Of a DNA stretch of 64,000 bases, positions 24,262 to 63,767 are shown piece after piece. The notes under the pieces are model-generated. The model was not told the DNA's origin and searched no databases. It saw nothing but the letters and a program-made list of their open reading frames with translations. The position numbers were made by a program, and so were the translations under genes. Source of the DNA: Candidatus Woesearchaeota archaeon (GTDB lineage: Archaea; Nanobdellota; Nanobdellia; Woesearchaeales; DSVV01); assembly GCA_018303325.1 (NCBI GenBank), contig JAGVYH010000002.1:17246-81245 (forward strand), written 5' to 3'. The stretch's first letter is position 1, and each line of letters opens with the position of its first letter.

Positions 24262-24652
24262 AGAGTGGAAAAAGCCTGAAATTAAAGATGGAGAATTGAC
24301 TAAATGGAATTGGGTTGTGCAACATATTAATGGGCTTAAACTTGGAGAATATACAGATATAGGCGCATTTACTTATATCAATGCAAAGTATGGTGTTGAA
24401 ATTCAAGATGATGTTCAAATTGGAAGCCATTGCTCAATATACAGCCACAGCACAATTGATAATAAACAAGGTAAGATAACTCTTAAAAAAAATTGCAGAA
24501 TTGGTTCACATTGTGTTATAATGCCAGGAGTAACTATTGGAGAAAATTCAGTTATAGGTGCGTTTAGTTTTGTAAATAAAAATATTCCTGATAATGTAAT
24601 TGCTTATGGTGTTCCTGTTAAGATTAAAGAAAACAGCAACAATAATAAGTAA
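24239..24652 (+). CDS. hexapeptide-repeat acetyltransferase (LegH/PseH-position N-acetyltransferase)
   Basis: Left-handed beta-helix hexapeptide repeats. Confidence 0.8.
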   Translation: MKMEKRFKEWKKPEIKDGELTKWNWVVQHINGLKLGEYTDIGAFTYINAKYGVEIQDDVQIGSHCSIYSHSTIDNKQGKITLKKNCRIGSHCVIMPGVTIGENSVIGAFSFVNKNIPDNVIAYGVPVKIKENSNNNK

Positions 24653-24703: not shown

Positions 24704-24798
24704 AAGTTTTGTTTATACTAAAAGCACAAAATAATCGAACATTATTTTGTGCTTTTGTATATACAAAAGCAATTAATTTGTTCGAAAATTAATTGCTT
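24704..24798. repeat. Family A double-hairpin intergenic repeat, copy A1
   Basis: Two adjacent roughly 18-bp-stem hairpins: TACTAAAAGCACAAAATAAT...ATTATTTTGTGCTTTTGTATA and TACAAAAGCAATTAATTT...AAATTAATTGCTTTTAGTATA. Confidence 0.7.
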
Positions 24799-24893
24799 TT
24801 AGTATATAAACAAAAGTTGCGGACTTATTACATACAACAATAAGAGATAGTATTTGTAGATTTATAATACAATTATCGTTAGAGGATATTAAA

Positions 24894-26018
24894 ATGGAGA
24901 TTATACCATTAGCAAAACCATATATAGGAAACGAAGAGATTGAAGCAGTTTGTGAGGTTTTAAAATCCGGATGCTTAAGCCTAGGTCCAAAGTTAGAAGA
25001 ATTTGAAGAAAGATTTGCAAAATTTGTGGGTGTTAGATATGCTATTGCAGTCAGCTCTGGCACAACAGGGTTGCACTTGTGTATGGCAAATTTAAACTTA
25101 AAACAAGGGGATGAAGTAATTACAACACCATTATCGTTTGTTGCATCTGCAAATTGCATTTTGTATATGAATGCTAAACCAGTCTTTGTTGATATTGATC
25201 CATTGACATTGAACATTGATCCAAAAAAGATAGAAAATGCAATTACATCCAAAACAAAAGCAATTTTGATTGTTCATATATTTGGAATGCCATGTGATAT
25301 GGATCCAATTATAGAAATTGCAAAGAAGTACAATCTCCTAATTATAGAAGATGCTTGTGAAGCATTGGGAGCAGAATACAAAGGCAAGAAGGTTGGTACT
25401 TTTGGTTTGGCATCAGTGTTTGCATTCTATCCAAACAAACAAATTACAACTGGTGAAGGTGGGATGATATGTACAAATAGTCAAGAAATTTATACTCTTT
25501 GTAAAAGTTTAAGGAATCAAGGAAGACCTGTTGACTCAAGTTGGTTAGTTCATGAAAGAGTTGGATTTAATTATAGATTAAACGAAATAAGCTGTAGTTT
25601 AGGAATTGAACAGTTAAAAAAAGTTGAGTTAATTCTTAAAAAAAGAGAAATTGTTGCAGAAACGTATAACCAATTACTTGATGGAACAGATGGAGTCGTT
25701 ATTCCATATAAATCAGATATTGCAAAACGAAGTTGGTTTATTTACTTTATCATTCTTTCAGAATATTTAAAAAGAGATGAACTATCCCAGAAATTAGATA
25801 AAAAAGGGATTAAAACAAAACCATACTTACCTTGTATACATCTACAACCAGCATATGTTAGATTATTTGGGTATAAAAAAGGAGATTTTCCAGTATGTGA
25901 AAAAATTAGTGAACATACACTAGCATTACCTTTTTTTACAGATATGAATAAAGAGACTATTGAGAAAGTTTGTAGTGAACTAAAGAGAGAGATTAAAGAT
26001 GTTTTTTCAACTAACTAA
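24894..26018 (+). CDS. DegT family aminotransferase (LegC/PseC-like UDP-4-keto-6-deoxy sugar aminotransferase)
   Basis: PLP aminotransferase fold and position next to the 4,6-dehydratase. Confidence 0.9.
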   Translation: MEIIPLAKPYIGNEEIEAVCEVLKSGCLSLGPKLEEFEERFAKFVGVRYAIAVSSGTTGLHLCMANLNLKQGDEVITTPLSFVASANCILYMNAKPVFVDIDPLTLNIDPKKIENAITSKTKAILIVHIFGMPCDMDPIIEIAKKYNLLIIEDACEALGAEYKGKKVGTFGLASVFAFYPNKQITTGEGGMICTNSQEIYTLCKSLRNQGRPVDSSWLVHERVGFNYRLNEISCSLGIEQLKKVELILKKREIVAETYNQLLDGTDGVVIPYKSDIAKRSWFIYFIILSEYLKRDELSQKLDKKGIKTKPYLPCIHLQPAYVRLFGYKKGDFPVCEKISEHTLALPFFTDMNKETIEKVCSELKREIKDVFSTN

Positions 26019-27042
26019 AAGATCAACATTCGGTGGTAAGATTATTCTTGTTACTGGTGGCTTAGGTTCTATTGGCTCAGAAATTGTAAGGCAATTGCTG
26101 AAATATAACCCTAAACAGGTACGAATATTTGACAATAGAGAAACTGAAACTTTTTTTATGCAACATGAGCTTAAACAGCACTCAAATCTTCGCTTTTTAG
26201 TCGGTGATGTAAGAGATAAAGATAGGCTTAATATGGCAATGGAACATGTAAACATTGTTTTTCATGCTGCTGCTTTAAAACATGTTCCGCTTTGCGAATA
26301 CAATCCATTCGAAGCTGTTAAAACTAATGTTTATGGTACCCAAAATATAATTGATACTGCTTTAACAAACAATGTAGAGAAAGTAGTAAATATTAGTACA
26401 GACAAAGTAACTAATACTATAAATACCATGGGTGCTACTAAGTTACTGGCTGAAAGGCTTATTTCGTCAGCTCAATATTTTAAAGGCAATAAAAAAACAA
26501 TTTTTTCATCAGTCAGATTTGGAAATGTGATAGATTCTAGAGGATCAATTATTGACCTTTTTAAAAAACAAATTAAACATGGTGGACCGGTTACAATTAC
26601 AAATCCAGATATGACTAGATTTGTTATGTCAACTAAACAGGCAGTTAATCTTGTTTTGAAAACTGCTGAAGAAATGCATGGGGGAGAAATTTTTATTTTG
26701 AAGATGCCGATATTTAAATTAAATGATTTAGTGGAAGTGGTTATAGAAGAGTTATCTTATAAAGAGGGATATGACTCAAAGAACATAAAAATAAAAAATA
26801 TAGGTATTAGAGAAGGTGAAAAATTATATGAAGACCTTATGACAGAGGTTGAAGCACAGAATTCATTAGAAACACAGACTAAATTTATTGTCCTATCAAA
26901 ATTAGGACTGCCAAATTATAAAGGACACCAGAAAAATTATAAAGCAATTAAAACAATAAAAGAACGATATTCTTCAAGGGATATCAAACCATTATCAAAA
27001 GAATTGTTAAAGAGGATACTTGTAAATGAAAAGATAATTTAA
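25999..27042 (+). CDS. UDP-GlcNAc 4,6-dehydratase, polysaccharide biosynthesis CapD/PseB/LegB family
   Basis: KIILVTGGLGSIGSEI Rossmann motif and SDR-extended fold. Confidence 0.85.
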   Translation: MFFQLTKRSTFGGKIILVTGGLGSIGSEIVRQLLKYNPKQVRIFDNRETETFFMQHELKQHSNLRFLVGDVRDKDRLNMAMEHVNIVFHAAALKHVPLCEYNPFEAVKTNVYGTQNIIDTALTNNVEKVVNISTDKVTNTINTMGATKLLAERLISSAQYFKGNKKTIFSSVRFGNVIDSRGSIIDLFKKQIKHGGPVTITNPDMTRFVMSTKQAVNLVLKTAEEMHGGEIFILKMPIFKLNDLVEVVIEELSYKEGYDSKNIKIKNIGIREGEKLYEDLMTEVEAQNSLETQTKFIVLSKLGLPNYKGHQKNYKAIKTIKERYSSRDIKPLSKELLKRILVNEKII

Positions 27043-27059
27043 TTTAAAGTTATTTTTTA

Positions 27060-28694
27060 CTACGTTTTTATTGTTTTATTGTAGTATTTGTGTTTTAGCA
27101 TGTCTAAAGCCAAATCTGAAATTCTTTCATTAACTTTACCGTCAATCTTATACACTTGATCTTTGACAAATAAATTTCTTTTTTCTTTTAACTTTTTTTG
27201 TAAATTAATGTTATTATTAACATCTTCTAATATGGTCATTAAATTATCGATATTATCTATTAATAGAACAGCACCAGAATCAACATAGGGTTTAAATGGT
27301 AAAAAATTGTTTATTTCCTTAGGTATCAAACCCATAACTGTTTTATTTAAGATGAGAGCTTCAAGAATAACTGTGCAATTAGAGAAAGCAACTACGTAAT
27401 CTGACAATGTTATTGCGTCATAAATATTAAACTCTTTTTTTATAAAGACATTATCTACACCCCTTATCATTTTAACGTATTCACTTATGTAACTGTCGCG
27501 TGGGTGTGGTTTAATGAAAAGTGCAAATTCTTTTTTATCTTTGAAGCTGTTCACTATCCTACTTAATATAGATAATGCAACCTCTTTTGTAAGATCTGCA
27601 ACAGTTGCATACAATACTATTTTTTTTCCAGATAATTTTAATAAGTATATATCTGGATCCCTATTTTCTATATTTTTATCTTCAATTTTTCTAAACAAAA
27701 AATCAGTATTTGGCTGTCCAACAATCTCAATGTTTTTTTCATCGTATCCGTCATAACCAATAAGTTTCTTCTTTGTAAATTCGCCATAAACTGCAATTTT
27801 GTCAGGCATTGGACAGCCTCTTAAAACATCTTCTTTTGAATGTACATAATATAATGTGTCATCTATCAGCCCTTCTTGTATCTCTAACACAGGCACATTT
27901 AAAGAGTGAGCAGCAGCAGTTATTGCCTTGCCTTGTAATGTTGATCCTGACATCTGTATTACTAATTTTGGTTTCATTAATTTTATAGCTTTTTTTGTTG
28001 TTTCTATATAGAATATTGCTTCACCAATCATTTTTTTTAAAACAAAATCAAGCCTGTCTTTTAATAAATGGTATGCATTTTCATTATTAATAATAAATGC
28101 AGAAGTAAAGTCTATACTTTTCATCATCCTATTGTATAAACTAAGAAATTTTTTTCTTTGCTGTTGAATTATTTTAGTTGTTTCATAATCATAAAAAAGT
28201 TCAATAGGATTTACAAAAGTATACCTTTTTCTTTGTTCTCTTGTCTTTAACCCAAAAGAAGCAAGATCATCATAATACAAAACATTTATTTCTGTTTGCT
28301 TGTTTAAATCATCAATTATACTGCCTATTCTTACGTTCCTTCCACTTTGAAGAAAAGAAGGGTGTGTAGTAACCAGTATATTACATGGATAAATATTATT
28401 TCTGCCAATGGTTCTTTTTCTCAGACGAGTCTTTAAATCAAAAGAATAGTTCATCAGAAGTGTACCCAACCTATGCTTTATTTCTTCTGTTTTTTTAATT
28501 TTTTCATTTCTTTTGTAAAAAATATCAGAGACGGATGGAAAATATTTGCTATCTCGATCCAACCATGGCTCAACAAGCCACCATAAAGAGATATTATCAT
28601 ACTTAAATAGCTCAGCAATATCTTTATGGTAATATACTTTTTTTTTTGAAAATTGTTTAACCCAAATTATTACTTTGTCCATTTTTAACAACAT
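27060..28694 (-). CDS. GT-B-like glycosyl/glycerophospho-transferase (TagB/TagF or capsule-biosynthesis-like), putative nonulosonic-acid transferase
   Basis: C-terminal KIVLYATV...KPHPRD resembles CDP-glycerol glycerophosphotransferases. Function is uncertain. Confidence 0.45.
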   Translation of the reverse strand: MLLKMDKVIIWVKQFSKKKVYYHKDIAELFKYDNISLWWLVEPWLDRDSKYFPSVSDIFYKRNEKIKKTEEIKHRLGTLLMNYSFDLKTRLRKRTIGRNNIYPCNILVTTHPSFLQSGRNVRIGSIIDDLNKQTEINVLYYDDLASFGLKTREQRKRYTFVNPIELFYDYETTKIIQQQRKKFLSLYNRMMKSIDFTSAFIINNENAYHLLKDRLDFVLKKMIGEAIFYIETTKKAIKLMKPKLVIQMSGSTLQGKAITAAAHSLNVPVLEIQEGLIDDTLYYVHSKEDVLRGCPMPDKIAVYGEFTKKKLIGYDGYDEKNIEIVGQPNTDFLFRKIEDKNIENRDPDIYLLKLSGKKIVLYATVADLTKEVALSILSRIVNSFKDKKEFALFIKPHPRDSYISEYVKMIRGVDNVFIKKEFNIYDAITLSDYVVAFSNCTVILEALILNKTVMGLIPKEINNFLPFKPYVDSGAVLLIDNIDNLMTILEDVNNNINLQKKLKEKRNLFVKDQVYKIDGKVNERISDLALDMLKHKYYNKTIKT

Positions 28695-30183
28695 CTATTC
28701 GTTTACAAATATCCTTTATTTCAGTTATAGTGACAACCTTAAGCACAAAAAGAGAAAGTATATAAAATATCAGTGCAACAATAATTGCAATTAATGCATT
28801 TAGTTCATTTAAGCCAAACAATAATATTGTTAAGTTTACAACTATTAAAAATACCGCCCCTGCAATAATGGTCTTAAGCCAGATTATAAATGGTATATTT
28901 AACTGAATTTTTGATTTAATATTTTTAAATGATGCAATAAACATGAACAAATAGCAGATTAATGTTGCTAAAGCAGCACCGATTATATTAAAAAAAGGAA
29001 TAAGTATCGCATTAAGCACAATATTAAGAAGTGCAGCAATAAAACTAGTTTTTGTGTTTAGTTCTGGCTTTCCAATACCTGCAAGCACAGCATAGTTTAT
29101 TTGAGCAACTGAAAGAATAAATATGCCTATTGATAATATTTTTAAAGTATTATTTGCTCCTATATATTCTTGCCCAAACAGAGTTTTAATGATTATTTCT
29201 GAAAAAAAGATCAAAATAATAAGAATAGGTATAAAAATAATGAATGAATATTTATATATCAAAACAATTCCCTGGCTTAAGTGTTCCATGTGTTTTTTTG
29301 ACCAAAGCTCTGAGCTCAAAGGATAGATTACATTTCTAAAACCAATTGTAATATAAGCTAAAAAATTAGCAGTTGGTAATGCAATATTATATAATCCTAC
29401 ATAAAAAACACCTGAAAAAAGCGTAAGCATTATTATGTCTGTGTAGGTTATAATAACACCAAAACCAACACCTAAAAAAGTGGGTATGGCAAATCTAAAT
29501 AGCCTTTTTAATAGTGGTTTATTATAATTTATTTTTATTAAGAAGAAATTAGGAAATACTTTTTTAAAGAAAATAAAAGAATAAATTGTTATTGTCAGAA
29601 CAGGCGCAAGTATGTAAGCATAACTTATACCAATCAATCCTAAGCCAAGCTTAAGAAATACATATGTAAGTGCAAATATAAATACTGACTTGAAAAGACC
29701 AATTGTTGAAAAAAGAATCATTTCTTGGTAGCCTTGGAATGTTTGTTTTAATAATAACTCTCCACCATAAAGAATAAAAGAAATCGCAACTAAAATAATT
29801 AAAGGCATTGATGCTACATCATGAATATAATTTTTTGCTAAAAATCCAGAGAATATAATGAATAGAATAAATATAATTATTGACATTATAAATCCGATAA
29901 TAGTAACATAAACAAAAGACTCTTTGATGGATTTTTCGTCTTTATTTACTTTAAATTCCGGGATAAATTTTGTAAGACTTTCATAGAAGCTTATATCACG
30001 AAAACTGTATATTAATGCAACAAGTGAAAATACAGAGAAAAAAAGTCCATACTCTTCTACTGTAAGGCTCCTTGCAAGAAATATTCTGTAAATATAACTT
30101 ACAAGTGCTGCTGATAAAGTAAATATTGTTATTATAATAAAATTTTTTATTGCTTTTTTAGTGTAATTTTGTGTTTCCATCAC
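28657..30183 (-). CDS. Wzx-like oligosaccharide flippase (MOP superfamily polysaccharide biosynthesis protein)
   Basis: About 14 TM helices and N-terminal RIFLARSLTVEEYG motif. Confidence 0.75.
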   Translation of the reverse strand: MMETQNYTKKAIKNFIIITIFTLSAALVSYIYRIFLARSLTVEEYGLFFSVFSLVALIYSFRDISFYESLTKFIPEFKVNKDEKSIKESFVYVTIIGFIMSIIIFILFIIFSGFLAKNYIHDVASMPLIILVAISFILYGGELLLKQTFQGYQEMILFSTIGLFKSVFIFALTYVFLKLGLGLIGISYAYILAPVLTITIYSFIFFKKVFPNFFLIKINYNKPLLKRLFRFAIPTFLGVGFGVIITYTDIIMLTLFSGVFYVGLYNIALPTANFLAYITIGFRNVIYPLSSELWSKKHMEHLSQGIVLIYKYSFIIFIPILIILIFFSEIIIKTLFGQEYIGANNTLKILSIGIFILSVAQINYAVLAGIGKPELNTKTSFIAALLNIVLNAILIPFFNIIGAALATLICYLFMFIASFKNIKSKIQLNIPFIIWLKTIIAGAVFLIVVNLTILLFGLNELNALIAIIVALIFYILSLFVLKVVTITEIKDICKRIDVVKNGQSNNLG

Positions 30184-30368
30184 TTAACGCCGTACCACTA
30201 TGTTTTAAATGTTTTATGGAATGAAAATATAGTGAACCTACTTATAGTGCAACAACTTAATCTTTAGGTGATGGTTATATGTAAACCACCAGAATTATTA
30301 AGTTGGTTGACCATATTAATTAGGCGTATACAAGTTAGTTGACTATATTACCTTGGTGGTTTGTGATA

Positions 30369-31853
30369 CTAAGAACTGGTTATTATTTTTGGATTATTTT
30401 TAATTATTTGAACTGCTTTTTTCATTGTTTTTTTAAGACCGTGTTTTTTTGTAGCATAATAAACCATTTTGAATTTTGTTTTGATATCTTCCATCATTCT
30501 TCTCGGATGCAACAATCTATATTTATTTATATCATTTCTTATATCATTTTCAAGCCGCCTTAATTTTTTGATAAATTCCTCATTATTAAAATCAGTACAA
30601 TTAAGGTATAAATCATTAACACCTTCTAACCCCATTAAATAATTTAATTCATCGCTTATTAATCCTTGCTCTTTTGCCCATTCATAAAGCTTTGTTCCTG
30701 GTAAAGGAGTAGTTACAGCAAATCCTGACGTTGGTTCAACATGAAGGCTTTTACAAAATTCTCTTGTTTCTTTTATTGAGTTTTCATCCTCACCAGGGTA
30801 TCCAAACATCATTTGCACTATTGGCTTCATTCCTGCATTTAATGTCTCTTGTATAGCATATTTATTTAATTCAACTGTGCTCTTTTTGTTCATATTATCT
30901 AATATTCTTTGGCTTCCTGATTCAATCCCATATCCTACATAAACACAACCCGCCTCTTTCATTTTCTTTAACAAAGAAGGAGTTATACAATTAACTCTGC
31001 CTTGGCACATCCAAGATATATTTAATGGTTTAATTTTGCCACATAACTCTAACATTCGGCTTTCACTAATCATTACCAATTCTTCTGCAAATTGTATCTG
31101 TGTGACATTGTACTTTTTTCTTAGTATACTAATTTCTTCGATTATCTTGTCTATTGATCTTAATCTTACACCATTAAAAGTTTTTGAGCAGAAATAACAA
31201 TTCCATGGACAGCCTCTTGCAGTTATTACATTCATACTGTTTGGATATTCTGGCTCAAAGAAAAAAGGGGTCTTTAAATATGATTCGATTGAAAATAAAT
31301 TCCATGCAGGCAATTCAATTGAATCTATGTCCTTGAGTTGAGTTTCATTAGTGGTTCGGATATATATCCCATTCTTCATAAAAGTAATGCCCTTTACGGT
31401 TTTTAGTTGTTCAAAATAGTTATCAGCATTACTCTTTTCTATTGTTTTAAGAATATTAGGCAGGATGATTTCTCCCTCCCCCATAACACAAATATCTACT
31501 TTTGTATTTTTTAACACAATTTCGCTGCTATGCATGGCCAATGCACCACCCAGAATAATCAAAGGGGAATTTGCTTTTGATTTAATATGCGTACTAATCC
31601 ACTTTACATATTTAAATTCTGGAGACATAGCAGAAATTCCAACACAATCAAAATTCTTTTTTTGTATAATTGATAAAACTTCTTCGTCAGTATACATCAT
31701 AACATCTATATCCAGTATATCTACTTGATAACCATCTTTAATAAGATGGGATGCGATATATGCTAATCCCAAAGGCAACCAAGCTGCATATCTTCGTTTA
31801 CCATTATATATCTGCGGTAGATGTATTAATAATATTTTTTTCATTTGAAACAC
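30369..31853 (-). CDS. B12-binding domain radical SAM protein
   Basis: B12-binding N-domain and ARGCPWNCYFC cluster. Confidence 0.85.
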   Translation of the reverse strand: MFQMKKILLIHLPQIYNGKRRYAAWLPLGLAYIASHLIKDGYQVDILDIDVMMYTDEEVLSIIQKKNFDCVGISAMSPEFKYVKWISTHIKSKANSPLIILGGALAMHSSEIVLKNTKVDICVMGEGEIILPNILKTIEKSNADNYFEQLKTVKGITFMKNGIYIRTTNETQLKDIDSIELPAWNLFSIESYLKTPFFFEPEYPNSMNVITARGCPWNCYFCSKTFNGVRLRSIDKIIEEISILRKKYNVTQIQFAEELVMISESRMLELCGKIKPLNISWMCQGRVNCITPSLLKKMKEAGCVYVGYGIESGSQRILDNMNKKSTVELNKYAIQETLNAGMKPIVQMMFGYPGEDENSIKETREFCKSLHVEPTSGFAVTTPLPGTKLYEWAKEQGLISDELNYLMGLEGVNDLYLNCTDFNNEEFIKKLRRLENDIRNDINKYRLLHPRRMMEDIKTKFKMVYYATKKHGLKKTMKKAVQIIKNNPKIITSS

Positions 31854-31855
31854 TC

Positions 31856-33139
31856 TTAAATACCAACAATTTTTTTGTGAAATTTAAGTATATTTATAAT
31901 TCTTTTGATATCATGATAATTCATATCTGAGTGTGTTGGCAGATTAATCATTTCTTTACTTATTTTATCTGCATTTGGGCAATTACCTTTATCATATCCA
32001 TAGAGACTCATATTTTCTTTAAGAGGATAAATTGGCGAGTCAAACCAGCAACCAACATCAACCTGATTTCTTCTAAATAAATTTATTAGTTTCTGCCTTT
32101 CTTTAAAACACAAAGCATATCTTAAATAAATATGTTTAACATTTTTTATAATGTGCGGTGTTTCAATATTCAACTTTTTCAATTCTTCATCTAATCTCAT
32201 CGCATTATTTATCCTAACTTTATTAAACAAATCAATCTTTTTTAACTGTTCAAGCCCAATTTTAGCAAATATATTATGCATTTTTATCATAAAACAGTTT
32301 GGTTTTTCAGCATTTAATTCATCTTTTGTGATAGTTGTGTTAAATAATCCTATCATTTTACATACAAGATCTATTAAATATATAAGAGGTAAACCAAAAA
32401 AATAAACGCTTTGATTAAGAAACAGGCGATACCTGATTATGTTTAATAAATGCCAAAAAACAAATAAGTTAGATGGTTTTTTACAGCATTGTTGTATTGC
32501 TTTCATCTTTTCAAAGTTTTTTTTGTCTTTTACTACAACTATGCCTCCTTGGCCAGTTGTAATATTTTTAGTATAATCAAAAGAGAAAAACCCAAAATCA
32601 AAAAAAGTGCCTACCTTTTTGCCTTTGTATTCTGCACCTAACGCTTGTGCACAATCTTCAATTACAGGGATATGATATAGGTCTGATACTTTTTTAATTT
32701 CATCAATTTCTGCTGGCTGCCCAAACAAATGATGAATAATTATTGCTTTAGTCTTAAAAGTTATTTTCTTTTTCATATCTGAAACAAGCGGATTAAACGT
32801 GTTGATACCAACATCATAATAAACTGGCTTAGCACCTGTATAAATTATTGCATTTGGAACCACAACACAAGTATAACCTGGAACTAAAACTTCATCACCT
32901 TGTTTTATTCCTAAACTTGTTAAAATGGCATATAATCCTATTCTGCCTTTTCCAAAGCTTAAAGAATACTTAACACCAAGATAGTTTGAAAATCTATTCT
33001 CAAATAGATTACAATAATCTTTTTTTTCTTCTTTGAATAATCCAATTATGGCTATTTTTATTTCATCCAAACCAATAGTTGGGTAAGGATTTATAGTGAT
33101 TTGTCGGATATATTTTCTAAGAAGATAAGTGAATATCAT
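31856..33139 (-). CDS. DegT family aminotransferase-like protein with internal hydrophobic insertion
   Basis: DegT N-terminal half (GDEVLVPGYTCVV...IEDCAQALGA), then a roughly 60-aa hydrophobic insert. Confidence 0.75.
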   Translation of the reverse strand: MIFTYLLRKYIRQITINPYPTIGLDEIKIAIIGLFKEEKKDYCNLFENRFSNYLGVKYSLSFGKGRIGLYAILTSLGIKQGDEVLVPGYTCVVVPNAIIYTGAKPVYYDVGINTFNPLVSDMKKKITFKTKAIIIHHLFGQPAEIDEIKKVSDLYHIPVIEDCAQALGAEYKGKKVGTFFDFGFFSFDYTKNITTGQGGIVVVKDKKNFEKMKAIQQCCKKPSNLFVFWHLLNIIRYRLFLNQSVYFFGLPLIYLIDLVCKMIGLFNTTITKDELNAEKPNCFMIKMHNIFAKIGLEQLKKIDLFNKVRINNAMRLDEELKKLNIETPHIIKNVKHIYLRYALCFKERQKLINLFRRNQVDVGCWFDSPIYPLKENMSLYGYDKGNCPNADKISKEMINLPTHSDMNYHDIKRIINILKFHKKIVGI

Positions 33140-33199
33140 ACAACCTCTGCTTTAAATAAGATTATAATTATTTAACTTCTACATTATTTCTTATTGAAA

Positions 33200-33730
33200 T
33201 TATTTATTCTTAATAATTTTCATCTCAAAAATTATTTGTTTATACATTTCGCCAAATATCATCCCAATATAGTTCCTGTACTTTTTTGGTATTAATTGAG
33301 CAATTAAATTATTTGGCACTAGTTCACGCTTTGTTATTTTATAAAGAATTGGTTTCATTCGTGATGTATGAACTCTATTCACATCTGAAAAAACACTAAA
33401 TGTATCTAAATGAAAAAACATTTTGTGGTATGGGTTAAATGCTGTTCTGCAATGATAATAAGGCACAATTATACTCCACACAGCATTAGGCTTAGAAATT
33501 CGATATAATTCCAAAATTATTTCTTCCCATTTGTCAAGTTCTTCAAACACCATATTCATTACAATGCAATCAAAAGTGTTATCTTGAAAAGGGTAAGGCA
33601 CCTCATTTAAATTATGAATTACATCTACACCTTCATGAAAATTAAAATCTAAATTAATCCATCCTTCTTTTATATCATTTCCACAACCCGCATTAAGCTT
33701 CATTATATTAGACCGGTTATTATTATTCAT
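33200..33730 (-). CDS. small class I SAM-dependent methyltransferase
   Basis: LNAGCGND motif I-like and DCIVMNMV motif. Confidence 0.7.
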   Translation of the reverse strand: MNNNNRSNIMKLNAGCGNDIKEGWINLDFNFHEGVDVIHNLNEVPYPFQDNTFDCIVMNMVFEELDKWEEIILELYRISKPNAVWSIIVPYYHCRTAFNPYHKMFFHLDTFSVFSDVNRVHTSRMKPILYKITKRELVPNNLIAQLIPKKYRNYIGMIFGEMYKQIIFEMKIIKNK

Positions 33731-33804
33731 GTTTATTCAGATTGTTCAATTAATTTTGTTAAATATGGTTATTTATTTGATTATATTTAATGATTAATTG
33801 ATTG

Positions 33805-33854
33805 TATACTAACATCACAAAACAATGTCGATTATTTTGCGCTTTTAGTATACA
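33805..33854. repeat. Family A-like degenerate single hairpin
   Basis: GTATACTAA...ATTATTTTGCGCTTTTAGTATAC. Confidence 0.4.
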
Positions 33855-34948
33855 TTAATAATAGAGAGGCAATTAGTTATTATTTCTATTTCTTTTTCTT
33901 TCAACTCAATATACGTCGGCAAATTAATCCCCTGCTCTGAAAGTTTTTTAGATATTGGAAAAGAGGAGTTATCTTTATAAGGGGACATTTCATTCAATGG
34001 ATAAAAAAATCTTCTTGTATCAATGCCTTTTTCTTTTAGTATATCTATCAAGTTATCCCTATTGACTGAAAACTTGTCATTTATCAAAATTGAATATAAC
34101 CAATCTACTTTCTTTGCCCATGGTTTGTTAGGCGGCAAAGTAATGTCTTTGACAGATTTTAATAAACGATTATAGGTTTCAGCAATAGCTCTTCTTTTTT
34201 CAATGAATTCATTTATTCGTTCTAATTGAGCCAAACCGACTGCTGCCTGAAGATTGGTCATACGATAATTGTAACCAATTACATCATGCCAATATCTTTT
34301 TTCTTTACTCATACCATGATCTTTTAATAATCGCATTTTTTCAGCTAATTGTTTATCGTTTGTGACACACATACCACCTTCTCCTGTCGTGATAATCTTA
34401 TTCCCATAAAAAGAAAAACAACCAATATCACCTATTGAGCCTACTTTTTTGCCTTTGTACTCTGCGCCATGTGCTTCAGCACAATCTTCAATGACAACTA
34501 AGTTATTTTCTTTGGCAATTTTCATGATTGAATCCATGTCACAAGGCATTCCATATAAATGTACAGGGATTATTGCCTTTGTTCTTTTAGTAATTTTTTT
34601 CTTTATTTCTTCTGAATCAATGCACCATGTATCTTCTTGGACATCTACAAGAACAGGCTTGGCACCAGTATAAATAACCACATTGGCTGTTGCTGCAAAA
34701 GTAAGATTAGGAACAATAACTTCATCACCTTTACCAATTCCTAATGCTAAAAGTGCAAGATGCAAGGCAACAGTTCCATTACTGCAAGAAACGCTGTGTT
34801 TCACACCACAAAAATCTGCAAATTTTTTTTCAAAAAGCTCAATAAATTTGCCTGATGATGAAATCCAGCCAGATGTAATGCATTCTGTCAAATATTTCAA
34901 TTCATTACCCTTTAAATTAGGTTTAGCAATTGGTATAAACTGCTCCAT
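33845..34948 (-). CDS. DegT family aminotransferase, GDP-perosamine synthase (Per)-like
   Basis: PLP aminotransferase immediately downstream of gmd in the same operon. Confidence 0.85.
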   Translation of the reverse strand: MEQFIPIAKPNLKGNELKYLTECITSGWISSSGKFIELFEKKFADFCGVKHSVSCSNGTVALHLALLALGIGKGDEVIVPNLTFAATANVVIYTGAKPVLVDVQEDTWCIDSEEIKKKITKRTKAIIPVHLYGMPCDMDSIMKIAKENNLVVIEDCAEAHGAEYKGKKVGSIGDIGCFSFYGNKIITTGEGGMCVTNDKQLAEKMRLLKDHGMSKEKRYWHDVIGYNYRMTNLQAAVGLAQLERINEFIEKRRAIAETYNRLLKSVKDITLPPNKPWAKKVDWLYSILINDKFSVNRDNLIDILKEKGIDTRRFFYPLNEMSPYKDNSSFPISKKLSEQGINLPTYIELKEKEIEIITNCLSIINVY

Positions 34949-35033
34949 TTTTATTATTGAATTTCATTAATTTTAACTAGCCAATTATTAGTCTATTACT
35001 TTATTGATAAGACAATTTGATTAATAATACAAG

Positions 35034-36092
35034 CTATAATCTTATTTTTTTTATATGTCTTTTAAGCACAGAAATTTCATTAGGATAATTCGGCGCATCC
35101 CATGGGAACAGCTCGCCTTTTGAAAACTTATCCCATCTTTCCATATCTGCTTTAATCATAATTTTAACTAATTCTTTAAACTTAACTTTTGGTTCCCATC
35201 CTATCTGTTCTTTTATCTTTCTTGCATCTCCTCTTAATAAATCAACGTCTTTTGGCCTCATAAATAATTTATCTGTCTTAACAAAATCTTTATAATTTAA
35301 GTTTGCAAGAGAAAATGCCTCTTCAGCAAACTCTTTGACTGAATGAGTTTCTCCTGTTGCGCAAACAAAATCATCTGGCTTGTCATGCTGAAGAATCATC
35401 CACATGGCTTCAACATATTCAGGAGCAAAACCCCAGTCCCGTTTTGCCTCTAAATTGCCAAGAACAAGCTCTTTTTGCAGATTATGTTTAATTCTTGCAA
35501 CGCCATTTGTTATTTTTCTTGTTACAAACTCAAGTCCTCTTAACGGCGATTCATGATTAAACAAAATTCCGTTTGAAGCAAAAAGGTTGTATGCCTCTCT
35601 GTAAATTCTTGTATTATGAAATGCAAGTAACTTTGCTGTTGCATAAGGTGAGTTTGGCTTAAATTGTGTTTTTTCTGTTTGGGGTGTTTCTTGTATTGTT
35701 CCGTACAACTCGCTTGTTGATGCTTGATATAACTTTATATCTTTTTTAAGATGCCTTATTATTTCCAAAAGCCTTGTTGCGCCGCTGCCATCTATCTCTG
35801 TTGTCAACAAAGGCTGGTCAAAACTGGCACCTACATAACTTTGCGCAGCAAGATTATATATTTCATCAGGCTCTGAAATGGTAACAGCTTCAAGCAAAGA
35901 AGCCATGTCTGCCATATCAGCAGGAACAAGTGTTATTTTATTTAGAAGATTAAGATACTGAAGCCTCCAAAAATTCGGTGTTGAACTTCTTCTGTATGTA
36001 CCATAAACTTTGTAGCCTTTCCTGAGAAGAAAGTCTGCAAGATATGCTCCGTCCTGTCCTGTGATGCCTGTGATTAATGCTTTTTTAGCCAT
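35034..36092 (-). CDS. gmd: GDP-mannose 4,6-dehydratase
   Basis: ALITGITGQDGAYLADFLL N-terminus and full-length Gmd signature. Confidence 0.9.
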   Translation of the reverse strand: MAKKALITGITGQDGAYLADFLLRKGYKVYGTYRRSSTPNFWRLQYLNLLNKITLVPADMADMASLLEAVTISEPDEIYNLAAQSYVGASFDQPLLTTEIDGSGATRLLEIIRHLKKDIKLYQASTSELYGTIQETPQTEKTQFKPNSPYATAKLLAFHNTRIYREAYNLFASNGILFNHESPLRGLEFVTRKITNGVARIKHNLQKELVLGNLEAKRDWGFAPEYVEAMWMILQHDKPDDFVCATGETHSVKEFAEEAFSLANLNYKDFVKTDKLFMRPKDVDLLRGDARKIKEQIGWEPKVKFKELVKIMIKADMERWDKFSKGELFPWDAPNYPNEISVLKRHIKKIRL

Positions 36093-36334
36093 ATCTATAA
36101 ACCCCTCATTTTAATAAAAGTAAGTAAATAATAATCTAATAATCTACACAAAGATAATAGCGATGAAATAGCTCGTTACTCTTTTTAAACTTTATGAATA
36201 ATATGTAATAAAACTTTATAAAGCAAAATTCACTCTTTTTTATTTTTGAATATATGATGCAATGAACTAATAAAAATTTAGAAGACGAACAAAGATAAAA
36301 AAGATATTACAAAGAGATTACGAAAAATAGAATT

Positions 36335-37525
36335 ATGAAAAAAGTTATTTTTTTTACAAATGGAATTACAGGGTTTGGCGGAGCAGAGAGGGTTCTGTTA
36401 GAGGCAGCTGCATATTTTCAGCAAAAGAAGGTTAAGTTAGTAATAATCACCTTTTTGCTTAATGAGAAAGTTGTTGAAAAGTATAAAGACAAGATTAAAT
36501 TTATTAATTTTGATACAACAAATTACTTCAAAAGAATAATTAGATTAAGAGATTTAATAAAAAAAATTAATCCTGATTTAATAATCGGCCAAAGCAGTTT
36601 GGACTGTTTATATCTTTACCTCTCAACAAAATTTACAAGATATAATTATATTAGTTATGTTCACGGCTCATTATTTTGGCTGGAAAATGAGAATTTAAAA
36701 TATGCATTGATTCACAAAAGTGTTTTTAACAAAATTAGGAATTCTGTTATTGGACATAAAGAGTTTGTTCAAAAAAAATCACCTTTGCCATTTTTCAAAA
36801 ACCTATTTTTTAATATTGTTGCATTTCTTGAGTATCTTGCAGTCAGAAAAGCAAAAGCAATAGTTGTATTGACAAAACAAATTCAATGGGAAGTGAAAAA
36901 GCTGTATAATAAGAATGCAATTATTATAAGAGGATGTATAGACAAGCAGTTATTATATTACAAACCAAAATTAGATATACGAAAAAGACACAGCTTGAAA
37001 AATAAAACAATCATACTTAATATTGGGCGCTTAGATCATAGAAAAAGGATTGATGTATTAATTAAATCGTTCTTTAATCTTTGCCCAAAATACAAAAATA
37101 TTGTTTTAATGATTGGCGGCAAGGGTCCTGATAAAGAAAGGTTAGACCAAATAATCAATGATGAAAAGTATAAAGCGTATAAAAACAGAGTAATCATGCT
37201 TGGTTTTGTTCCAGATAATGAATATTTTGATTATTTGGCAGGATGCGATATTTTTGCATTTCCAAGCTGGACAACATCTGGAATCCCAACATATGAAGCA
37301 TTAGCATTAGGCAAGAAAGTTATCTGGAGCAGTGAAGCAGAAGAGCCAGTGTTAACACATCCTAATGTTTATGTTGCTGAGCCTAATGTTGAAGAATTCA
37401 CAAAAGCAATAGAGAAAGCATTAAATTCAAAAATTTATCCAAAACCCAACTTAAAAGAGCATACTTGGGAAAGATATTTTGAAAAGTTGTACAATGTAGC
37501 AAGTAATGTTGTTAACAAGTGCTGA
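36335..37525 (+). CDS. GT4 family (GT-B) glycosyltransferase
   Basis: C-terminal glycos_transf_1 motif region. Confidence 0.8.
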   Translation: MKKVIFFTNGITGFGGAERVLLEAAAYFQQKKVKLVIITFLLNEKVVEKYKDKIKFINFDTTNYFKRIIRLRDLIKKINPDLIIGQSSLDCLYLYLSTKFTRYNYISYVHGSLFWLENENLKYALIHKSVFNKIRNSVIGHKEFVQKKSPLPFFKNLFFNIVAFLEYLAVRKAKAIVVLTKQIQWEVKKLYNKNAIIIRGCIDKQLLYYKPKLDIRKRHSLKNKTIILNIGRLDHRKRIDVLIKSFFNLCPKYKNIVLMIGGKGPDKERLDQIINDEKYKAYKNRVIMLGFVPDNEYFDYLAGCDIFAFPSWTTSGIPTYEALALGKKVIWSSEAEEPVLTHPNVYVAEPNVEEFTKAIEKALNSKIYPKPNLKEHTWERYFEKLYNVASNVVNKC

Positions 37526-37608
37526 ATTAATATTAAAAAGAGAAAATAGTCTGCATAGTTTAAACTTCTCAAACAAAAAATAATCAAAAAAGTTAAAAAA
37601 TAAAAAAA

Positions 37609-38802
37609 CTAAGTGTATTTACAACCATCTACATTAAGATTATTATAGATTATACCACACTTTCCATTTGGTAAACTGCCACCTGATGTACAATCTTGTG
37701 AATAATCATTAACCACTTCATTTGTACAAGGATTAATTGTTTGATTTATAACATAACTACCTGTCTTGCATTTTATAACTTTTTGTGGTGTACAATCTGA
37801 TGGAATCGTTTGACATTTACCGTCTGAATCGTAGCAGGTTGCGCCTGATGGACAGGTTGGTTCATAAGAGAGAGGATAACCCATCTTATCATAACCAACC
37901 CATTTATCATTAATTTTACAAATATACTTAGCATATTGATAAATCTCACTTGAATAATAATTTGTGCATGCGTACATTATATCACCCTCATTACAATTAA
38001 TAGTACATTTTGCTGAACCTGAACTTGAATCTGAACAAACGTAAGGTTCTTTTGTGTACCAATCTTTTGTAGTTGTACAATCTATATAATTATCCTTTAA
38101 CTCACCAGTACAACTATTTTTTGTCTGATTGTATAAAACATTACCTTGACATTCTGATTTAACAATTTCATTATTACAGCATCCAACATTGTCTTTACAG
38201 AGGGAATTATCATTCCATCCACAATATTTTTGATCATTGTTATTCAAATAAGTTGTGCAATCTGCATTTTGATATTCTTTTCTGTATTCGATATAATTAT
38301 ATTCATTCACACATTTGCCATTCCCTGTTGGACCTGGTTCGCATGTAACTGGGTTTGGTGGAACGCATGCACCATTTTCACAATGATAATTACCCATTAT
38401 TTTATTGCATGCGAATTTAGTCGATGTAATCTTCATTTTGCCACCAATAGCTGTGGTACATTTATATTCGATAAGATTTAATATACTAGCGCAATAATCT
38501 GTTTGAGACTGTGATTTATATGTAACTGTTGATGCTTTTTTATATTGTTCACTTACAGGACTAAAAGAACCATCAGGATCATTACATCCTAGTTTAGAAT
38601 ACGCTCCTCTAAACGCCTGTCCAGCCAATCCAACACTTTCGCTTGTTTCTCCTTCATCACTTGTTAGAACATCTTCTTCTGTTGTCCCGCTAAACCCACC
38701 ATAATTAGTCGTCATCACAACAATACCAACAACTGCCACGATTGCAACAATCGCAATTAAATACAAAGAATACTTTTTCACGTCTTTTTCCAAATTAATC
38801 AC
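37609..38802 (-). CDS. cysteine-rich extracellular protein with N-terminal signal anchor
   Basis: One N-terminal TM helix followed by 30 Cys in about 330 aa, rich in N/Y/T/K. Confidence 0.55.
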   Translation of the reverse strand: MINLEKDVKKYSLYLIAIVAIVAVVGIVVMTTNYGGFSGTTEEDVLTSDEGETSESVGLAGQAFRGAYSKLGCNDPDGSFSPVSEQYKKASTVTYKSQSQTDYCASILNLIEYKCTTAIGGKMKITSTKFACNKIMGNYHCENGACVPPNPVTCEPGPTGNGKCVNEYNYIEYRKEYQNADCTTYLNNNDQKYCGWNDNSLCKDNVGCCNNEIVKSECQGNVLYNQTKNSCTGELKDNYIDCTTTKDWYTKEPYVCSDSSSGSAKCTINCNEGDIMYACTNYYSSEIYQYAKYICKINDKWVGYDKMGYPLSYEPTCPSGATCYDSDGKCQTIPSDCTPQKVIKCKTGSYVINQTINPCTNEVVNDYSQDCTSGGSLPNGKCGIIYNNLNVDGCKYT

Positions 38803-38884
38803 CTTTTTTGTTTTAAATTGTTTAAAATTATCTATAGGAAATAACTTTAATTTTCGGATAAACTGAAATTAATATAAAGTTATA

Positions 38885-39040
38885 ATGTCGGACATAAATA
38901 CTTATACAAATAGTTATGTCCGATAAATATAGTAAGTGACACGATTTGTATAAAAATTTAGGTCACTTACTATATTTCCTAATAATCAAATCACTTTCTG
39001 TTAGTCCTAATGTTCCGATTATTAAAGTGATTTGATATAA
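38885..39040. repeat. cluster of three unique long-spacer dyad symmetries in a divergent promoter region
   Basis: TCGGACATA-n18-TATGTCCGA. AGTAAGTGAC-n21-GTCACTTACT. ATCAAATCACTTT-n26-AAAGTGATTTGAT. Confidence 0.55.
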
Positions 39041-39132
39041 TTTACTTATTTCTGAATGAAGTAATATATAAATGTTTTTTTTTGACGAGCTAACGTCGAC
39101 AACTTTTCTTCAAAATATTTATAAACCACACA

Positions 39133-39519
39133 ATGATAGTACTGCCAATGGAACAATCTGAAAAAGCTAAAAACAAAACATATATTGGATTATATGAAAA
39201 AGTAACATTAATGGGCAACAATACGCCAAACAAAGAAGTTATCGCTAAAATAGACACAGGTGCAACAAGGAGTTCTATTGATGTCAAACTTGCAGCAGGC
39301 TTGAAATTAGGGCCTGTATTGACATCAAGAATGATTAAGAGCGCGCAAGGCTCGACATTAAGACCGATTGTTGAAGGCGAAATTATTATCGCTGGAAAAC
39401 AATTAAAGGTTCATTTCACGATTGCCAACAGATCAAAAATGAAATATTCCATGCTGATTGGACAGGATGTTTTAAAAGAAGGTGAGTTTTTGATTGATCC
39501 GAGTAAGATATTAAATTAG
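39133..39519 (+). CDS. retropepsin-like aspartic peptidase (RimK-associated, DUF785-type)
   Basis: IDTGATRSSID catalytic DTG(A) motif. Adjacent to the RimK homologue. Confidence 0.7.
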   Translation: MIVLPMEQSEKAKNKTYIGLYEKVTLMGNNTPNKEVIAKIDTGATRSSIDVKLAAGLKLGPVLTSRMIKSAQGSTLRPIVEGEIIIAGKQLKVHFTIANRSKMKYSMLIGQDVLKEGEFLIDPSKILN

Positions 39520-39567
39520 GAAAAGGAGTATTTGTTTATCTGATATTATCTTTTTAGCATATAAAAC

Positions 39568-39756
39568 ACGTTTGTGGGACGCAGTCAATGTCATTAAGTT
39601 AAGCAATTCCAAACCACCAGACGCTTTAAATCATGGGCATCTGCTCAGATTTCCAGCAAGACATTATCGCGTCATTTTGTCGTACCTTCAGACCATCAAA
39701 CCATATCACCATCTTACCTTTTTTCGTGAACGTGTCCAATCAGGTAGGAACTAAAC
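39568..39756 (-). repeat. Family B MITE-like intergenic element, copy B1 (minus orientation)
   Basis: Minus strand starts with GTTTAGTTCC and ends with GACTGCGTCCCACAAAC. The 60-aa track ORF 39572-39754 lies wholly inside it. Confidence 0.65.
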
Positions 39757-39778
39757 AAATATAAAAAAAAGATATAAT

Positions 39779-39912
39779 TATACTAAAAGCACAAAATAAT
39801 CAAACATTATTTTGTGCTTTTGTATATACAAAAGCAATTAATTACAAACTGGGTATTATGCCCCGCAGCTTGCTGCGACACCCAGTTTGTAATTAATTGC
39901 TTTTAGTATATA
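39779..39912. repeat. Family A copy A2, with a 47-bp GC-rich nested hairpin inserted in the second hairpin loop
   Basis: Same two stems as A1. Insert is ACAAACTGGGT...GCAGCTTGCTGC...ACCCAGTTTGT. Confidence 0.7.
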
Positions 39913-39948
39913 ACAATAAAACAAAGAATAAATCGTGAATAAACAAAA

Positions 39949-41031
39949 ATGAAAGCCGCAGTTATAAGTTTAGGAAGTGTAAGTTCGCAATGGACAATTG
40001 AAGCTATGAAAACCTATTTTAAGGTTGTTGATGCTATTGATATAAGGGGATTAGAGGTAAAGTTAGGAAAAAAAAATATTGAAATTCTTTACAACAGCAA
40101 ACAGTTAGGTGAATATGACTGTATTTACGCAAAAGGCTCGTTTAGGTATGCGCAAATATTAAGGGTTTTAACAACTGCATATTCTCATAAATGTTATCTT
40201 CCATTAAAAGCAGAAACATTTACTTTAGGCCATAACAAGCTTCTGACACAATTAAAACTGCAGGAAGCTGGAATTCCTATGCCAAAAACTTATCTTACAT
40301 CAACAACAATATCTGCTAAAAATCTTTTAGAAAGTATTACTTACCCTATTATTATGAAATTCCCAGAAGGTTCACATGGCAAGGGCGTGATGTATGCTGA
40401 CAGTTATGCTGGTGCAAACTCAATCCTTGATGCATTAACAACCCTTAACCAGCCGTTTATTATCCAAGAATATATTGAAACAGAGGGAACAGATATACGT
40501 GCATTTGTTGTCGGCAATAAAGTTGTTGCATCAATGAAAAGAAAGGCAGCGAAAGAAGAAAAAAGGTCAAATATCCATGCTGGCGGCACAGGAGAAGCAA
40601 TTGAATTAGACAGCCAAACAAAAAAGATTGCGATAAAAACAGCGAAAGCACTTGGGTGTGATATTTGCGGTGTAGATATTCTGGAAAGCGGTTTAGGGCC
40701 TTTGGTTATAGAAGTTAATTTAAGCCCAGGGCTGCAAGGGATTACTAAATCAACAAAAATTAATATTGCTGACAAGATTGCAAAGTTTTTGTTTGAGAAA
40801 GCATCTGAATTCAAAAATTATATGGAAGGAAAGGTTAAAACATCTGAAATATTGAATGAGTGCGGGATTGACAGAGAAAAGCATAATGATAAAGAAATTA
40901 TAGCCAACTTATCTTTGAGAGGAAAAAAGATAGTTCTGCCTGAAATTATTACAGAGATTAGTGATTTTGACGAGAACCAAGAAGTAACTATTTCTGCCAG
41001 CAAAGGCAAGGTTGTTATTAAGAAGTTTTGA
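39949..41031 (+). CDS. RimK-family ATP-grasp peptide ligase with C-terminal extension
   Basis: Pre-ATP-grasp and ATP-grasp motifs. Confidence 0.8.
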   Translation: MKAAVISLGSVSSQWTIEAMKTYFKVVDAIDIRGLEVKLGKKNIEILYNSKQLGEYDCIYAKGSFRYAQILRVLTTAYSHKCYLPLKAETFTLGHNKLLTQLKLQEAGIPMPKTYLTSTTISAKNLLESITYPIIMKFPEGSHGKGVMYADSYAGANSILDALTTLNQPFIIQEYIETEGTDIRAFVVGNKVVASMKRKAAKEEKRSNIHAGGTGEAIELDSQTKKIAIKTAKALGCDICGVDILESGLGPLVIEVNLSPGLQGITKSTKINIADKIAKFLFEKASEFKNYMEGKVKTSEILNECGIDREKHNDKEIIANLSLRGKKIVLPEIITEISDFDENQEVTISASKGKVVIKKF

Positions 41032-41062
41032 GTATTGTTTTAGAGTGTTGTTTTATATTGAT

Positions 41063-41158
41063 TATATACTAAAAGTGATTAATTTCCGAACAAATTAATC
41101 ACTTTTGTATATACAAAAGTGCAAAATAATGTTCGATTATTTTGCACTTTTAGTATAT
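41063..41158. repeat. Family A copy A3, inverted orientation with compensatory stem substitutions
   Basis: GCAATTAATT/AATTAATTGC in A1 is GTGATTAATT/AATTAATCAC here. GCACAAAATAAT/ATTATTTTGTGC is GTGCAAAATAAT/ATTATTTTGCAC. Confidence 0.7.
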
Positions 41159-41185: not shown

Positions 41186-41266
41186 ATGAATTTATTCTTC
41201 ATGAGACTGTGGACTGCGTCCCACAAACTGGTTGAGAGCGGATTTACCATTAAGGTTAGTGGGTAC
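41186..41266 (+). repeat. Family B 3' module only (B5)
   Basis: TTCATGAGACTGTGGACTGCGTCCCACAAACTGGTTGAGAGCGG...GGTTAGTGGGTAC. Confidence 0.6.
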
Positions 41267-41423
41267 TAAACAATAAAAGACCTATTTTATATAAATTATA
41301 AGCATAAGACTTATATATGTGTTAAACACACATGATAATCAATAGTGTTTAGCATTGTGTTGTTCCTTTCCTTTCACAATGGAAATACTATGAACATTAT
41401 TCTATTTTAAAGGAGGGATATGT

Positions 41424-53441: not shown

Positions 53442-53587
53442 TTTAGTTCCTGAGCGCAGCCACCTGTCTCATGATTATTTTTAGTTTATTTTATTTTATA
53501 CAACTATTTTAAAAAAATTAATTTTTCATGTGACTGTAGACTGCGTCCCACATGCGGATTGGGAGCGGGAAACAGGGTTGTGAGCAG
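53442..53587 (+). repeat. Family B copy B2
   Basis: TTTAGTTCC...GAGCGCAGCCACCTGTCTCATGA...TCATGTGACTGTAGACTGCGTCCCAC...ATTGGGAGCGGG...GTTGTGAGCAG. About 23-bp TIRs. Confidence 0.7.
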
Positions 53588-53621
53588 AAAAAAGATAGAA
53601 AAATCATATACTAAGAACTTA

Positions 53622-63746: not shown

Positions 63747-63767
63747 AAAAAATATTAATTATAGTGG

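Follow-up and report, generated by a model that had tools for sequence, protein, structure and literature searches.

A hairpin-doublet repeat family with covarying stems in Woesearchaeota, probably a non-autonomous mobile element

Miniature transposable elements with inverted repeats (MITEs) that duplicate a TA dinucleotide are well known in bacteria, for example Correia/NEMIS in Neisseria and RUP in Streptococcus pneumoniae, which are IS630-related, non-coding and about 100-150 bp in length. In both, the terminal inverted repeats stand directly after the duplicated TA and the ends read TATA; the elements fold into long hairpins, lie between genes, often near gene ends, and occur as sublineages and as variants with internal deletions or insertions. 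Archaeal MITEs include SM1 to SM4 of Sulfolobus and the haloarchaeal palindrome-associated transposable elements (PATEs), which derive from IS200/IS605 and carry hairpins at their ends, and these groups are defined by the similarity of their ends to a known insertion sequence (IS). Here we describe Family A, a double-hairpin repeat found in a stretch of 64,000 nucleotides (the window; positions 17,246 to 81,245 of contig JAGVYH010000002.1) from a Rifle-aquifer groundwater genome of Candidatus Woesearchaeota (DPANN) with 31% G+C. Family A is likely to be a non-autonomous, MITE- or REPIN-like mobile element of Woesearchaeota genomes that is recognised as a hairpin.

Bacterial doublets of repetitive extragenic palindromic sequences (REP doublets or REPINs), which are moved by REP-associated tyrosine transposases (RAYT, also TnpA-REP), resemble Family A in being short extragenic palindromic units at high copy number (PMC3116915; PMC6006769). 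In both cases inverted doublets predominate and singlets appear as decayed relics, the hairpin is kept by compensatory change, and a short conserved head stands at the foot of the stem. Family A differs from REPINs in its head, which reads TA-TAC(T)AAAAG instead of GTAG or CGTC, in its longer (48 nt), AT-rich units, in junctions with an apparent TA/TATA duplication and in its DPANN host, and no RAYT was found for it. With Correia/NEMIS and RUP it shares the size class, the TATA ends, the hairpins, the intergenic sites and the existence of sublineages and variants. Unlike them, it consists of two separate polar hairpins with a conserved loop motif and systematic stem covariation, and no IS630/Tc1-like transposase with matching ends was found. 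It is also comparable to the archaeal MITEs as a small non-autonomous element in archaeal intergenic DNA, but no parent element was identified, its hairpins are unlike those of the IS200-like element of the same organisms, and it has terminal inverted repeats where a PATE would have none and would carry the same-strand subterminal hairpins of a resident IS. Family A is of a MITE/REP-like kind that is well known in bacteria and some archaea, and does not make a new category. In a census of MITEs, one Woesearchaeota genome had 105 of them per Mb, one of the highest densities of any archaeal carrier (PMC11602168).

The basic unit of Family A is a polar hairpin of about 48 nt, in which TAC(T)AAAAG is followed by a 10-12 bp stem, the TCGAACA loop, the second, complementary stem and finally CTTTT(A)GTA. 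The head TATAC(T)AAAAG is present in all units, and their polarity can be read from the loop, which is TCGAACA on one strand and TGTTCGA on the other. In the usual form two inverted units are joined at a central TA, with the layout TATACTAAAAG-(stem/loop/stem)-CTTTTGTATATACAAAAG-(stem/loop/stem)-CTTTTAGTATA, and every full copy carries terminal inverted repeats, with TA-TACTAAAAG(Y)(R)... on one side matched by ...CTTTTAGTA-TA on the opposite side. All 33 doublets with callable polarity are arranged FR and none RF, i.e., TCGAACA comes first and TGTTCGA second on either strand; because of this fixed arrangement, the doublet can be described as a two-fold symmetric inverted pair of units whose halves differ in stem sequence only. 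Singles (48 nt), triples and a 143-nt long form also occur. Neither the singles nor the longer elements of 93-143 nt can encode a protein, given their shortness and their many stop codons.

With a covariance model of the unit, 240 matches were obtained, corresponding to roughly 200 distinct units, in the 0.73 Mb of related contigs that were gathered for comparison and are designated here by L-numbered labels. A strict pattern scan of species-representative genomes matched 11 contigs. Nine of them belong to two metagenome-assembled genomes (MAGs) labelled Candidatus Woesearchaeota (eight and one, respectively), and the remaining two to a low-GC MAG with the label Methanosarcinales, while a framed-hairpin scan of metagenomes returned at least 118 contigs, with the core family concentrated in five Joint Genome Institute data sets. 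A strict pattern scan of viral contigs found no match, which leaves a viral origin unsupported. Perfect palindromes with the same frame that were scattered over gut, marine and soil contigs were taken as chance matches, the search pattern being itself palindromic.

The original prediction rested on three copies in which both sides of each stem had changed together, and this pattern extends far beyond those copies. Between A1 and the reverse complement of A3, two of the window doublets listed below, 9 of 93 positions differ; eight of these make up four compensatory pairs, two in each hairpin (C-G to T-A and A-T to G-C, all transitions), and the ninth lies in a loop. We then aligned 80 distinct units in one polarity and compared them with shuffles that keep relatedness in and with slid controls. 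Changes on both sides were found at 11 of 18 stem pairs, standard pairing was kept in 90.9% of cells (77.4% when shuffled, 38-45% in the slid controls), and the covariation score of 0.314, against 0.095, was reached by none of 500 shuffles. Pair 13-42, for example, occurs as GC (30 units), AU (22) and CG (17), and several positions have three common pair types; given the slid controls and this number of pair types, chance covariation is implausible. The random substitutions in stems that would have spoken against selection on pairing were therefore not what the additional copies revealed.

Covariation reaches into the frame, where AAAAG/CTTTT is replaced by AAATG/CATTT, AAACG/CGTTT, AAGAG/CTCTT or AAAGG/CCTTT. 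The further proposal that structure is selected rather than primary sequence does not hold, however, since the frame and the loop TCGAACA/TGTTCGA are kept across sublineages with quite different stems. Even sublineages that differ entirely in their stems have the outer TATAC, the loop motif and most of the AAAAG/CTTTT frame in common.

The members of Family A in the window and their parts are as follows, the doublet limits having been set by a frame search, a repeat finder and the covariance model.

24714-24806, plus strand: A1, a 93-nt doublet of the GCA type, scoring 69.3 and 71.8 bits with the covariance model
24714-24761: unit 1 of A1, with stem CACAAAATAAT and loop CGAAC
24752-24769: central palindrome of A1, CTTTTGTATATACAAAAG, the meeting point of units 1 and 2
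24760-24806: unit 2 of A1, with stem CAATTAATT and loop TGTTCGAA
33805-33852, minus strand: solo decayed unit of the AAAATAAT stem type, scoring 32.1 bits on the minus strand and 26.8 on the plus strand
39779-39910, plus strand: A2, a 132-nt doublet of the GCA type, with unit 1 at 39779-39826
39844-39890, no strand assigned: nested palindrome of another repeat family, ACAAACTGGGT...CCCCGCAGCTTGCTGCG...ACCCAGTTTGT, which occupies the loop position of hairpin 2 of A2
41065-41157, minus strand: A3, a 93-nt doublet of the GTG type, with units 41065-41111 and 41110-41157, scoring 71.6 and 70.9 bits

All sequences quoted in the earlier description are present in the window, and the double hairpins with their frame were recovered. 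Some measures needed correction: the limits given for A1, 24704-24798, lie about 10 nt too low, and the stems, described as 18 bp, measure 15-17 bp without the frame and about 22 bp with it. The inversion of A3 was borne out, the order of its two stem types being reversed relative to A1, and the repeat finder reported A3 and A1 as an inverted repeat of 100 nt with 90% complementarity. A scan with the covariance model, filters off, found no further Family A copies in the 64 kb. The frame TATACTAAAAG, allowing up to one mismatch, occurs 14 times against 3.85 expected (0 of 100 shuffles), and the 18-nt centre three times against 0.2 expected. Predicted folding of the window doublets far exceeds that of shuffled sequences on both strands (z -9.3 to -13.8), and none of 200 shuffles was equally stable.

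The copies are intergenic, as claimed, and A2 and A3 stand on either side of rimK, which encodes an ATP-grasp ligase. A2 ends 38 nt upstream of the rimK start codon (39949) and A3 begins 34 nt past its stop codon, while A1 has a hexapeptide-transferase gene (24239-24652) on one side and a DegT aminotransferase gene (24894-26018) on the other. A composite transposon A2-rimK-A3 was considered and rejected, as the inverted arrangement alone speaks for it. Copies of A1 with 100% identity occur in L002, L007, L013, L085 and L126, and ten further assemblies from this population carry A2 with an unchanged sequence. A2 departs from A1 at only two points: one loop base is different, and the 8-nt loop of hairpin 2 has given way to a 47-nt palindrome; with this insert, unit 2 of A2 scores 47.5 bits. 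The palindrome in this loop (ACAAACTGGG...CCCAGTTTGT, core CCCCGCAGCTTGCTGCG) is also found in unrelated contexts (L068 1896, L084 7774, L115 7354), and the core motif CCCCGCAGCTTGCTGCG recurs in many other intergenic hairpins of the related contigs. The degenerate single-hairpin relative was likewise confirmed as the solo unit at 33805, whose arm differences are uncompensated and whose folding z is -7.0 on the minus strand. The final 8 nt of the open reading frame (ORF) 33845..34948(-), a DegT-like gene, fall within this unit, and the TAA in its frame TATAC-TAA-AAG is the stop codon of that gene.

The differences between the window copies are best understood from the group with AAAATAAT/ATTAATT stems, which comprises 39 insertions at distinct sites, of either the GTG or the GCA type. 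Both hairpins are of the same type in 38 of these 39 independent insertions, and the change from GCA to GTG is shared by all four arms. In the one exception, L027 5414, a single arm is converted and two G·T pairs form; this copy is plausibly an intermediate or a recombinant. The two types share one MAG and the same metagenomes, and each of them exists in short and long forms. A1 and A2 (GCA) and A3 (GTG) are members of two coexisting sublineages, and their four paired differences, which stand at the base of all four arms, are inherited markers; because GCA and GTG coexist as lineages in several genomes, the difference between A1 and A3 did not evolve in place at these loci.

Mobility is indicated by the comparison of orthologous sites. 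L010 carries a doublet at 3144-3236 where L027 (9152-9168) is empty, the flanks being 84-88% identical, and one TA/TATA becomes two upon filling. At another orthologous intergenic site, L123 and L051 are empty, L057 holds a single unit, L085 a single unit of another sublineage and L081 a doublet (L081 3855-3947, L057 5898-5946, L085 5339-5387, L123 ~4674-4689, L051 ~2934-2949). This hot spot, occupied by at least three different Family A members in different contigs, is the loop of another conserved hairpin (CCGAAAAC...GTTTTCGG) beside a conserved stretch of about 60 nt (GTTTTCGGCGAAGAAAACTGGCAGTAGCATAATCCC...). Elements also nest: in L079 a doublet sits within another Family A element with TA on both sides, and in L025 a doublet stands at the central TATA of a Family B element that is uninterrupted in the window (38880-38975), in L007 and in L027, adjoined by a third small element with TATA between all pieces. 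Between sources with orthologous flanks of only 84-88% identity, the copies themselves reach 98-100%, which fits either recent activity or strong constraint.

Family B is a second double-hairpin family, found in the window at 38880-38975 with a third hairpin at 38985-39040, in the arrangement TATA, ATGTCGGACATAA...TTATGTCCGATAAA, TATA, GTAAGTGAC...GTCACTTAC, TATA; it is multi-copy in L007, L025, L027, L035, L079 and L084.

Insertion at TA, usually within TATA, with duplication of the TA is the preferred description of the target site and the more parsimonious one in two of three informative junctions. It is preferred because the L079 element then becomes symmetric (TAC...GTA), the L010/L027 pair requires no indel, and the doublet can be written as TA-unit-TA-unit-TA.

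As Family A carries no gene, an enzyme encoded elsewhere would move it. Such an enzyme would probably read the conserved frame and loop on an extruded hairpin, either as single-stranded DNA or as a cruciform, and only those copies whose arms still pair would proliferate. This would account for the finding that active sublineages differ by compensatory changes whereas the solo unit at 33805 has decayed without compensation. We infer structure-specific recognition from the pattern of sequence conservation described above.

Several points weigh against the reading of Family A as a mobile element recognised as a hairpin. Neither an autonomous partner nor a cognate transposase was found, and we therefore infer its mobilisation in trans. 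Complementary arms would not in themselves be required by a DDE transposase binding double-stranded terminal repeats, and covariation therefore needs either structure-specific recognition or a templated correction from arm to arm. The target duplication is read from three informative junctions, two of which lie in diverged or nested sequence, and TA is not clearly distinguishable from TATA, or from an IS200-type insertion 3' of TATA by an element ending in TATA. The long forms contain a 50-nt two-hairpin module exactly at the central GTATAT/AC, without duplication, in three sublineages and in one orientation, and a simple insertion model does not explain a module at the identical point in three sublineages. 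A secondary role at the host level, e.g., as an RNA 3' hairpin, is possible.

Long forms with this module were seen in L019, L027 (7790-7932), L045, L063, L065, L066, L081, L098, L111 and L112. The module was never seen outside Family A and shows a compensatory change of its own in L066; a different two-hairpin module stands at the same central point in L012 (216-361) and L088 (4979-5128).

The search for a mobilising enzyme covered the surroundings of the window and the related contigs. The genes called in some 100 kb around the window show no transposase domain, and no autonomous IS with Family A ends was found in about 1 Mb of fetched contigs or in the same 100 kb, a search that was not exhaustive and did not cover complete genomes. 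In none of about 120 contigs did Family A prove to be a fragment of a larger IS, an outcome that would have refuted the original prediction. Multi-copy ORF clusters were considered as partners and rejected; they encode exosome and proteasome subunits and a Bro-N-like protein, i.e., housekeeping functions and not transposases. A search for distant frame pairs 0.6-3.5 kb apart gave output that was too noisy.

It can be speculated that Family A, Family B and the other small hairpin families with shared TA/TATA sites are propagated by an enzyme reading extruded hairpins, which would be either an archaeal counterpart of the REPIN-RAYT system or an undescribed transposase. We hold this broader idea to be unlikely. 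If it were true, the GCA and GTG sublineages would represent two recognition specificities, and this would be the first REPIN-like replicator system in Archaea, residing in genome-reduced DPANN symbionts.

Among the rival explanations, the one that survives best is that Family A is an IS200/IS605 derivative, PATE- or REP-like, moved as single-stranded DNA by a Y1 HUH transposase, although we judge it unlikely. The hairpins would then be recognition structures and TATA(C) the cleavage or target site, and the duplication would be only apparent, because the element ends in its target tetranucleotide. Y1 enzymes, as known from IS608 and from REP/RAYT, read hairpins in which loop and foot sequences are conserved and one base is bulged, covariation is expected when structure is read on single-stranded DNA, and the insertions of Family A inside or beside other hairpins agree with such a mode. 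A comparison with elements of this type had been suggested in the original prediction, and a Y1 transposase does exist in the related contigs, but the hairpins at its ends are unrelated to Family A. The gene was found in L126 (2775-3251) with a regular expression for the HUH and Y motifs and confirmed by Pfam as Y1_Tnp (PF01797, E = 1e-13); it is divergent, with the HUH motif NHVH and the Y motif YILEQQ. It belongs to an IS200-like IS of about 809 bp that is multi-copy, being present in at least seven contigs (L126, L025, L076, L105, L079, L038 and L085), and that often breaks assemblies. Its coordinates are 3533..2725 (-) in L126, ~5170-5475 in L025 and 5031-5944 in L076, and it stands at contig ends in L038, L085, L105 and L079. 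In L076 a Family A doublet lies between the tnpA stop codon and the right end of the IS, and looks like just another insertion.

The ends of this IS are GC-rich hairpins (GCAGGTCT...AGACCTGC and GGGGTCGCTACCCC) dissimilar to Family A, and it inserts after T-runs, not at TATA. Inverted hairpins with terminal inverted repeats are also untypical of IS200/IS605 ends, which lie on one strand, and no Y1 gene was seen in the 100 kb or so around the window. No RAYT gene flanked by Family A was found in the contigs searched (whole genomes not included), where the only Y1 gene found is the IS200-like one. Reports from Archaea are confined to Y1 proteins of the IS200 type and include no RAYT classes (PMC6006769), which also speaks against this alternative.

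A second alternative, quite unlikely in our estimation, is that the folding of RNA is selected, with Family A acting as a symmetric cis module (for example, a terminator working in both directions, or a stabiliser of 3' ends) or as a small structured RNA. The strong covariation would be expected here as well, the predicted RNA hairpins are very stable on both strands, CUUUU ends each stem, and the symmetry would serve transcription from either side. Placement relative to genes can be read in both directions. Of 103 elements, 85 share at most 15 nt with any ORF, a quarter lie within 10 nt of a stop codon, which is in favour of an RNA function, and in seven cases, the solo unit of the window included, the TAA of the frame is the stop codon of a gene. 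The orientations of flanking genes (++ 21, -- 21, +- 20, -+ 16, against a background of 211, 179, 104 and 100) correspond to 42 co-directional, 20 convergent and 16 divergent pairs among 78, roughly as in the background, and the 16 copies at divergent gene starts thus count against a role in transcript ends.

The base pairs themselves point the same way. In the model-based alignment, the non-standard cells among 1361 are 18 G·T, 29 A·C and 39 others, and there is no G·U excess on either strand; a crude count had given an asymmetry of 35 to 16, which in view of the model-based 18 to 29 was treated as no bias. The T-run has only four bases. Rfam 15 gave no match at gathering thresholds over the whole window, and a permissive Rfam search around A2 and A3 returned only sub-threshold matches to miRNA precursors, with 21-28 bits where 70-88 are required. 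Presence and absence at orthologous sites together with nesting indicate gain at arbitrary TA sites, and the solo unit at 33805 has decayed without compensation, both of which are at odds with a selected RNA. We therefore favour constraint on DNA through transposition competence, and thus a mobile DNA element, over a dedicated RNA gene because there is no G·U excess, the doublet has two-fold symmetry, all intergenic contexts are used, and sites differ in presence and absence.

That a dimeric protein (for instance TBP/TFB at the TATA-like frame, a nucleoid protein or a regulator) binds the copies as duplex DNA, with half-sites that covary as arms, is very improbable, for although the frame with its TATA-like ends and centre and the loop motif with TTCGAA are conserved and the four arms change from GCA to GTG in concert, the stems are almost wholly different between sublineages with pairing kept, which a dimer reading sequence would not tolerate, the arms of 16-22 bp far exceed normal half-sites, and the distance from the end of an element to the next start codon is variable (38, 75, 88 and 267 nt in the window). 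The delivery of promoters or TATA boxes was also rejected in view of these scattered distances.

We contend that Family A, as a probable hairpin-recognised mobile element, is a tidy rather than a surprising case, and that it is of value mainly for the question of what enzyme reads hairpin doublets in these archaea. It is well suited to the search for the mover enzyme in archaea by its clean anatomy, with polar units, a fixed inversion, a conserved loop, stems that covary and two sublineages differing in all four arms. It is also a well-resolved example from DPANN archaea, whose genomes are tiny and thought to be streamlined, yet whose intergenic DNA here holds several hairpin families, some of them nested. 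In addition, Family A can serve as a marker for strain-level insertion polymorphism in time-series data from this aquifer.

The proteins encoded in the window recur on a 99.9-kb groundwater-metagenome scaffold (record ANAN16) and on many sister assemblies. The genes called around the window include those for a sigma-70-like protein, gyrase A, PTH2 and a class I lysyl-tRNA synthetase; PCNA is encoded on a contig overlapping the window (L144 4154-4897), exosome and proteasome subunits are encoded on related contigs, and the window contains no tRNA genes. A bacterial (CPR) origin, which the sigma-70-like gene had brought into consideration, was rejected in view of PCNA, the exosome and proteasome genes and the sigma-70 genes already published for Woesearchaeota, and the host is concluded to be a DPANN archaeon of this group.

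A further repeat around GACTGCGTCCC (CATGAGACTGTGGACTGCGTCCCACAAAC...) occurs in the window at 41189-41273, 53516-53604, 62462-62550 and 63674-63762, with a partial copy at 39568-39600. In L130-L134, L136 and L137, which belong to the same population, 131 nt more of this repeat are present upstream of A2, and these are either an assembly difference or a population polymorphism. The sigma-70-like gene, with Pfam regions 2, 3 and 4, is located at 50353-51924 on the minus strand; according to PMC8204110, sigma-70 genes are especially common in Woesearchaeota. The 5' part of ORF 48336..50273(-), the class I lysyl-tRNA synthetase gene (PF01921), contains about 17 tandem copies of a 12-nt repeat (50065-50266), which would encode a repetitive four-residue extension at the N-terminus.

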